From sequence record PQ330092: 64,000 nt of DNA; one strand, 5' to 3'. Below the pieces are notes generated by a model. It saw only the letters and a program-made list of their open reading frames with translations. It had not been told where the DNA came from and made no database searches. Source of the stretch: Escherichia phage JP4. Shown here piece after piece: positions 20,538 through 30,539 of this stretch. The stretch's first letter is position 1; each line of letters starts with the position of its first letter. Both the position numbers and the translations under genes were made by a program.

Positions 20538-23500
20538 TTACTTAACTAATAATATATTTTTAATATCATTACCACTAACTTGTAGACTATCAGTGTATAC
20601 TGAAAGATCTATAGTGTAACTATTTTGTGTGTAACGTTTTAACATATCATAATTACCTAAATTAATTCCATTGAAAGAATATGTAGTATTAAGTTTAAAA
20701 TCATGTTCTGCACTATACATTACACCACGGAGTAAATTATTTGCATTTCTAACTTCAACTTTTTCATATCCAATCGATATAATATCATTCATGTTTGCGG
20801 CTGAACCGGATAAAACATTATTTCTAATACTATAAGGACTTATTGATTTAGGTTGAGAAACATAGGTTGTATTTTCTTCACTAATGGTTGTGATGTTAGT
20901 AACAGTACCACCAACAACACCGATATACATACCGTCAACCATTGGGAATCCATAAACCCATATCCCTTCATTATTTCTAAACGGTTGAATAACACTTGAA
21001 TCATATTCGATAACGTTGATTTCTAAACTATCAGTCATTTTAGTTCTTGCCAATTCACTAAGAACTCCCGCACCCGTAATTGGTAAGTTATAACCGTTAT
21101 CGATAGTAATTCCATCAACATCAAATATTTCATTAGAGATTATCCAAACGTCAACGTCATCTGGTGTTATTCCGTCATTGTACTTACCACCATTTAAAGT
21201 AGTATCGTAGAAAACATCATAATTAATTACATCAATGGTGTAATTTCTATTTTGTTCATACAATTTAATACCATTCTTGACAAATTCAGGGTCAGCAAAT
21301 GTTCTAACACGAACAATGTTCAATGCTAGAGGCTGTACTGGCTCATTTTGTTGTGCAAGAGTGATGTTATCATAACGGAGAACTGCACCAGTACTCTCAT
21401 CAATCAATTCAATCGTTTCCTTACCTGTATTTCTTACAGTGAATAGGATCGGAGTTGTATTGTTTTTGATGTTAGATACACGCAAGATTGTTTCCCATGT
21501 GTGATTTTGATATCTCACAAAATCTTCACCATCAGGAGTGAAAATCATCACCTTATCACCATCAGATAGGTCATTGTCAACTATTTCTGCTTCAGTTAAG
21601 CTATTAATAGATCTCACACGATAGAAATATTTTTCATCAAACTTCGATGTTGTTTTATTAATATCATTTTCAATCTTAGCATATGAAGGAATACTTACAA
21701 TTGCTTCTGTATGTTTATATGGATTGATAATTGCCATACCTTCAGTTTGATATCTGCTGTTATCACGTAATTGTACAAGAGATACATTGTCAAACCCATA
21801 TCCATCAACTGTAAATCTAATTTGACCTACATCACGCCCAGAAGGGTTTATGTCAGATATATCCACAATATAAGGATCAACTTCATCATCTTTAACTTCC
21901 CATTTTATTGAAGAAGTTTGAGATTCCAATGCTAGGTTATCAAATGCATTCATATCATTGAAGTACTTAGCTTCAGTAATACTATCAAGTATATATTGAT
22001 AATCAGAATACATTGGATTATTTTGATCTAGTGGTAAATCATCAAGATTTATTTCAGCTAGTTCAACCATTTCACCATTTGTGATAAAATAATCTTCCAT
22101 GAAATCATCAATACTTTGTTCATCAGGTATACTTTGATATACACCGTTAACATTTAAGTAAACATATTTTCGTGGAATCATTGTAATTGCATAGATATCA
22201 ATTGGGGTCTTACTAAGAATCTCTTCAGCTTTTTCGTACTTATCAGTAGCGTCTTTGTCGAATAACCCTCTCATACCTGCTAATACGTGAATAGCATCAG
22301 TATAGAAACGGGTATCACCACCTACTTCATCATAACGATAAACATATACACCATACTCAACTTCAAGTTTAACTTTTACTTCATAGTCTGATGCGTCAGG
22401 ATTTTTATCTTTAATTAATGAAATGTATTTTTGATACAATTCACTGCTTATTTCAAAATATCCATAGTTATAATCATTACTAGAAGAAAAGCCTAATGGA
22501 AGTCTAGTACTAGGATTGTCATTATAAGTAAGTCCACTAAATCCACATCCAACTTCATCGTGAATTTTCTCATCACTTATATCTTTATAAAGTTTCAAAC
22601 GGTTTGCCAATGTGTTATACTGAACATATTGTCTAAGGTCAGTAAACATATCGTTATGCGTTGATTCTTTATAAACACGTTCCAATGTAGCAGTGAATTC
22701 ATCAGTTGCTTCTAAATCTTCCGCATGGTCTTTATACCACTGGTTAACGCCATATGCTGTTCCTAGTGTTACATCCAATTCTGGATAGTAGATTTGCATT
22801 TGATAAGCAATAAGAAGATCGAAAGTTTCTTCACTATATTCTGGGAAAGAATATATATAACGTTGTAATTCATAGTTACTAACAGCATCCTTTTCATTGG
22901 ATTGATATTTGTTATTAACACTTACTAATTCATTTATGCTTGCCAAATCTTCATTTGGTTTACACTGAATATTATCATAATGCATAATAATATCAATTTC
23001 TTGGAATCTTCTATTTGGTGTAACGAAATCACTTGGTAGTGAACCTACCTGTTCCCATTTTTGGGTAATTTCATTAAATTGAGCGTACTCATAATCCCAA
23101 ATATCTTTTTCAGTTTTGATCCAAGAACCATCAACGAAAATATATCCATTAGGATCTAAATCATTACATAGACCTTTTATTAAATCATCATCAGATGTCT
23201 TTTGCTCTATTTGTGAACGAATTTTAGTTCTATAAGGTTTAACTTCTTCAAAATATTCAACAATTTGATTAATCAAATTATCGTTTGAATAGTTTTGAAC
23301 TAATGATTGTTCCAAACCAACAATATAGATATATGATGTTTTAAATACCCAATCCACAACACTTTGTTCAACATGTACATATTTGACCATATCAAAAACA
23401 ATTTCGCTTTGATGTAAATCGAAAGAATTTTTGAGTAAAGCTAGTGCTTTACGAACGTTGATTTCACGATTGCTTAGTGAACCATTATCATTATGAACAC

Positions 23501-30539: not shown

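Follow-up and report, generated by a model that had tools for sequence, protein, structure and literature searches.

A giant protein encoded in the gp7 position of the baseplate module of a jumbo coliphage, and its proposed role as a peripheral wedge subunit

Contractile injection systems are considered to share a universal core, the (gp6)2-gp7 wedge, and the locus described here raises the question of what a giant protein is doing in the gp7 slot of a widespread lineage that has clear homologues of gp25, gp6, gp53 and gp5, and whose occupant of that slot lacks a detectable link to gp7. The locus lies within a 64,000-nucleotide stretch of Escherichia phage JP4 DNA (PQ330092), hereafter the window, which is 99.9% identical to the Asteriusvirus jumbo coliphage vB_Eco_slurp01. 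A first-pass annotation of the window had reported a single open reading frame of 3333 codons downstream of a gp6-like wedge gene and proposed that it encodes either several components of the wedge or of the baseplate periphery fused together or an expanded adhesin scaffold. The gene itself was already known from GenBank and from two published virion proteomes; what is new here is its interpretation and the family-wide picture. We consider it probable, with considerable room for doubt, that the protein is a large peripheral baseplate wedge subunit of RaK2-like jumbo myophages acting in the role of gp7 (gpI in P2, TssG in type VI secretion systems).

The maximal open reading frame occupies positions 20538..30539 of the minus strand (the strand had been left unstated) and comprises 3333 codons plus a stop codon, running from ATG to TAA unbroken over 10 kb, as the first-pass annotation had it; the DNA is ~33% G+C, and a chance origin of an open frame of this length is therefore impossible. 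Sequencing errors hiding several shorter genes, a possibility that had been raised earlier, were rejected as the source of the frame, which more than 30 independent genomes carry intact: at least 80% of the gene is covered in 34 phage records, nearly all of which annotate it as one CDS, with fragmentation in a few records only (the Salmonella SD-series and CMSTMSU). The protein most likely starts at Met11 (ATG 30509..30507), because a GGAG at 30520..30517 precedes this codon by 7 nt, Met11 is invariant across the family alignment, it is the first residue in the E9.1 annotation and in cluster P0001 with its 111 members (3323 aa each), and the mass calculated from this start, 381.85 kDa, matches the value published for phAPEC6 gp245; no Shine-Dalgarno sequence was found before the first ATG. 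The likely real CDS is thus 20538..30509 (minus strand), which encodes 3323 residues, not 3333, with a pI of 4.6. The protein has an acidic composition in which Tyr, Asn and Asp are abundant, and it has no transmembrane segments. Residue numbers below count from the first codon of the maximal frame.

Among jumbo phages of the PBECO4/121Q group the gene has been catalogued before. A PHROG scan of the whole protein returned its own family only, phrog_10938 ("virion structural protein"), with aa 11-3330 aligned to positions 1-3324 of the 3324-column profile (5786 bits, E = 0). Members of this family include the orthologues in PBECO4, RaK2, GAP32 and K64-1 as well as 121Q gp582, phAPEC6 gp245, CBB_236 and PA5oct gp128; identity to the Asteriusvirus copies of the gene is 98-99.9% at the nucleotide level, and the protein is 58-70% identical to the copies of CBB, GAP32 and RaK2. 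A search with a sub-profile of aa 1420-1600 extended the family to 1180 clusters at 50% identity, and among the best 150 of these 1180, almost all are giants of 2.5-6.3 thousand residues, as opposed to the small bridging proteins for which the same sub-profile was used. Isolated phages that carry the protein infect Escherichia coli, Klebsiella, Salmonella, Erwinia, Yersinia, Pseudomonas and Agrobacterium, and over a thousand clusters of the lineage are metagenomic. Judged from these sequences, giant size is ancestral across a family of more than 1,100 clusters. In the literature, we found no published function, location or high-resolution structure for any member of phrog_10938; the existing baseplate map has a resolution of 25 Å.

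The neighbours of the giant gene are gp53-like, gp5-like, gp25-like and gp6-like genes, all of which point to a baseplate module. The gp5-like gene for a hub and tail lysozyme (35825..38488, minus strand; 887 aa) was recognised by PHROG and Pfam matches, and the gp25-like gene for a sheath-initiator wedge protein (34889..35284, minus strand; 131 aa) by PF04965 (E 1.2e-8) and phrog_43. Immediately upstream of the giant gene, at a distance of 49 nt from its open reading frame, lies the gp6-like baseplate wedge gene (30589..34050, minus strand; 1153 aa), the product of which matches phrog_10646 and phrog_219 "baseplate wedge subunit" (E 1.2e-20) and aligns at its N-terminus with residues 21-107 of T4 gp6; in distant loci, the orthologous proteins contain PF27647 (DUF8360). 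The order in the window is gp25-like, an HNH insert, gp6-like and giant, and the gp25 - gp6-like - giant order is kept in five of five very distant loci, even in metagenomic phages in which the giant proteins are only ~28% identical, so that the placement in a gp7 slot downstream of a gp6-like wedge gene is upheld. In four of these five loci the start codon of the giant gene overlaps the stop codon of the gp6-like gene, and genes with tail-fibre Pfam matches follow the giant gene in three. P2 and Mu show the canonical order gp25/W - gp6/J - gp7/I - fibre.

The intergenic region upstream of the giant gene contains the octamer CATAAATA (30546..30553, minus strand), which agrees with the T4-type late promoter sequence TATAAATA at 7/8 positions and is located 36 nt 5' of the Met11 ATG; each of the six exact copies of TATAAATA in the window is found shortly 5' of a gene start, and CATAAATA may serve as a T4-type late promoter of the giant gene, as its sequence and placement suggest. 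A terminator-like hairpin, GGGCGTTC-TTCG-GAACGCC followed by a T run, stands between the gp6-like and giant genes (30563..30582, minus strand), and a second, with a 12-bp stem and a T run (20507..20533, minus strand), comes right after the giant stop codon and is common to the giant gene and a convergent protease gene. The giant gene is a real late-module gene of 3323 codons that comes next in line behind the gp25-like and gp6-like wedge genes.

Orthologues of the protein are present in virions, contrary to the alternative, named beforehand, that the product might be missing from them. Mass spectrometry detected phAPEC6 gp245 (381.88 kDa) with 17 peptides, and the protein is listed beside gp244, a "baseplate wedge" (PMC7247149 Table 1); CBB_236 was detected with 21 peptides and is listed beside CBB_237, likewise a "baseplate wedge" (PMC5259590). 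PA5oct gp128 is among the largest proteins of its phage and gp129 is annotated as a baseplate wedge (PMC7318152), their adjacency being read here from the consecutive numbering. From the gene order and the whole-virion proteomics of these orthologues we infer a location in the baseplate.

Whole-virion proteomics gives no location of its own, which leaves room for a protein that sits beside the baseplate genes by chance and is internal to the virion, either ejected like the virion RNA polymerase of N4 or serving as a tape measure. The PHROG category of phrog_10938 ("head and packaging") and the hairpin that parts the giant gene from the gp6-like gene in the window agree with such a reading. It is nevertheless highly improbable, given the kept gene order, the overlap of start and stop codons in most of the distant loci, the extracellular-type carbohydrate-binding inserts of relatives described below, and a protein in which no polymerase or other enzymatic domain and no transmembrane segment was found. 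A helix rises by ~1.5 Å per residue, and 3323 residues as one helix would span ~500 nm, whereas the tail has a published length of ~110-125 nm; the structural models show mixed alpha/beta globular domains, not a long helix. A tape measure was rejected because the protein is not predominantly alpha-helical and its length is out of proportion to the tail.

Alignment with relatives separates a conserved core (aa 11-2470; 23130..30509, minus strand), composed of many alpha/beta and beta-sandwich domains, from a fast-diverging C-terminal third (aa 2471-3333; 20541..23129, minus strand), with mean identities across 14 relatives of 57% in the former versus 34% in the latter; this C-terminal third, ~860 residues in length, is recognisable in enterobacterial relatives only. 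AlphaFold2 (AF2) models of core segments reached pLDDT values of 80 and 78 and predict the mixed alpha/beta globular domains mentioned above. The core begins with an N-terminal module (aa 11-160; 30060..30509, minus strand) that is kept in all distant homologues and is followed at once by the first of several insertion hot spots, which lie at aa ~159, 470-590, ~760, 1600-1825 and 2140-2260. In the AF2 monomer model a helix-turn-helix is predicted at aa 26-57 with low pLDDT, and aa ~11-100 are conserved, yet modelled with low confidence. By analogy with XM1 gp17 (PMC10457771), the N-terminal module is a candidate for the part that docks on the gp6-like dimer; the N-termini of the giant and gp6-like proteins show no similarity to each other, though the corresponding domains are homologous in XM1. 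The stretch of aa 1421-1560 (25860..26279, minus strand), with the motifs W-NGRL-APGF, RHLIGYQ and FYKGFI-KGT, ranks with the best-conserved parts of the chain but has a pLDDT of only 34-51 in the monomer model, and the models thereby mark it as a candidate inter-subunit interface. The site at aa ~1600-1825 (25065..25742, minus strand) takes up to ~1,700 extra residues in distant homologues, including FG-GAP, CBM5/12 and Gly-rich domains. More generally, CBM5/12, FG-GAP and Gly_rich_2 domains occupy the hot spots in relatives. A Laminin_G match, too, is on record in one relative.

The first-pass suggestion of an expanded adhesin scaffold stands in part, by virtue of the CBM5/12, FG-GAP and Gly-rich inserts of relatives and the diverging C-terminal third; against it, internal repeats are absent, self-BLASTP at E values up to 10 having returned the identity alignment only. 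A repetitive giant adhesin built of tandem Ig-like or cadherin-like repeats was rejected on this ground. A broader version of the idea, in which the protein is mainly an adhesin or fibre hub for host recognition that hangs on the baseplate and is not a structural wedge subunit, draws on the same carbohydrate-binding, FG-GAP, LamG and Gly-rich domains, on the speed at which the C-terminal third diverges and on the acidic, Tyr-, Asn- and Asp-rich composition. We regard it as unlikely as a main function, in that ~2,460 residues are kept from phages of E. coli to those of Pseudomonas and Agrobacterium, unlike in receptor-binding proteins, the fold search gave no match of sensible rmsd to trimeric fibre or beta-helix proteins, and three of the five distant loci have separate genes for tail fibres downstream. 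A role in host recognition is compatible with a wedge subunit as a second role.

Kinship with gp7 and other baseplate proteins was sought at the levels of sequence, profile and fold. A Pfam scan of the whole protein returned no families, in agreement with the earlier remark that it contains no recognisable enzymatic motif, and the gp7 domains PF21427, PF21428 and PF21456 were likewise without a match. When the N-terminal and aa 1420-1600 segments of six family members were scanned in isolation at E values up to 10, Pfam gave no match, and PHROGs gave only the family itself and the unannotated phrog_18833 (E 0.003, in one distant member). No match was found among all PDB sequences, whether by phmmer with the whole protein or by hmmsearch with a 15-sequence profile, and a fold search with the models, which covered all except the C-terminal 930 residues, matched neither gp7 nor another solved structure. 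In hhalign, a 47-sequence family profile showed no similarity to T4 gp5, gp6, gp7, gp8, gp9, gp10, gp11, gp12 or gp53, the probabilities for gp7 being 0.15-1%, with 0.4% against the single sequence of T4 gp7 and 0.15% against a 41-sequence gp7 profile; the comparison with gp7, gp8 and gp10 that had been put forward as a check on the fusion proposal thus gave no similarity.

A fusion of T4-type gp7 with gp8, gp10 and gp11 would account for the size of the protein and for the absence of gp7-gp12 from the T4-homologue table of CBB, which are the only points in its favour. The lack of similarity to gp5-gp12, to gp53, to the gp7 profile or to the Pfam gp7 domains, together with the lack of a fold match, tells against this part of the first-pass proposal, as does the ancestral state, one giant chain, across more than 1,100 clusters; giant size being ancestral to so large a family, no recent fusion took place. 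At the level of detectable homology, the fusion is largely refuted by the sequence comparisons and we find it scarcely credible.

An extremely diverged true orthologue of gp7, gpI and TssG, in which ~3,000 inserted residues have split and enlarged the small core (the helical stem and trifurcation domain), is in our estimate fairly unlikely. The gene position is identical to that of gp7 and gpI, a conserved internal stretch folds poorly as a monomer, and T4 gp7 is itself an enlarged version of a protein of 180-240 aa (PMC10457771). The best profile match, a weak one, came from hhalign of aa 1420-1600 against a 113-sequence gpI alignment (E 0.017, probability 2.7%, 49 columns), which pairs aa 1456-1510 of the giant protein with residues 101-149 of P2 gpI and includes a shared W..PG and RHLIG. 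Given the number of comparisons tried, this resemblance is not significant and serves as a lead only; Tail_P2_I (PF09684) and the gp7 domains had no Pfam match to the segments at E values up to 10, and the segment PHROG scans, the gp7 profile and the fold search were all without a relevant match. No supported hhalign match to Mu gp48 was found. The strings "LLP..." and "KGT", which we take to be motifs of tail protein I, have similar counterparts in the giant protein; they were rejected as a link, since both occur in P2 gpI but in an order that differs with respect to the aligned segment, and profile support was absent.

A wedge subunit in the role of gp7 is the reading that we prefer, and its mechanism can be sketched. 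One copy per wedge, six per virion, would dock on a dimer of the 1153-aa gp6-like protein, and the many globular domains of the core would form the outer rim of the baseplate, standing in for the gp8-gp11 periphery of T4. Together with the C-terminal third, the exposed insertion sites would hold baseplate fibres, touch the cell surface, or both, and may set off sheath contraction by relaying the binding signal inward. The published table of T4 homologues in CBB, which has gp5, gp6, gp25 and gp53 and no gp7-gp12 (PMC5259590), is consistent with this arrangement, and the pilin-type Ig-like domains are also counted in its support. Counted against a gp7 analogue are the hairpin between the gp6-like and giant genes in the window, the lack of gp7 homology, and the dimensions of the CBB and RaK2 baseplates in negative stain, ~36 x 15 nm, which are not obviously larger than those of T4. 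More tentatively, the protein may be an independently evolved single-chain periphery with folds unlike any solved, which replaced gp7 and gp8-gp11 in the ancestor of a very large jumbo and mega-phage lineage and whose insertion sites form a plug-in platform for host-binding modules.

A structure of the giant protein would show either that the "universal" heterotrimer is kept under ~3,000 added residues or that it is replaceable, and would also reveal where these phages have their host-binding modules. Carriers of the gene include the therapy candidates phAPEC6, RaK2 and PA5oct; for host-range engineering, the insertion sites and the variable C-terminal third offer themselves as targets.

Among known systems, the members of phrog_10938, such as phAPEC6 gp245 and CBB_236, are in sequence terms the same protein, with no difference. 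T4 gp7 (1032 aa; PDB 5IV5) occupies the same slot after the gp6 orthologue, in a module with gp53, gp5 and gp25 homologues, and both are large, multi-domain structural virion proteins without an enzymatic domain; by analogy, the giant protein is expected to join the inner wedge to the fibres as T4 gp7 does. It differs in the lack of detected sequence, profile or fold similarity and in being 3.2 times longer, close to the threefold difference estimated at first pass. The minimal gp7 orthologues, P2 gpI (176 aa), Mu gp48 (180 aa), XM1 gp17 (242 aa), Pam3 gp23 and TssG of type VI secretion systems, are ~18 times smaller, and the Tail_P2_I family gave no match and the gpI alignment a non-significant one; the giant gene nonetheless follows the orthologues of gp25/W and gp6/J as theirs do, and fibre genes come after gpI and gp48 in P2 and Mu as they do after the giant gene in three of the five distant loci. 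Large multi-domain proteins likewise build the periphery of other complex baseplates, as exemplified by the DUF4815 baseplate arm protein of Staphylococcus phage 812 and by phiKZ gp087.

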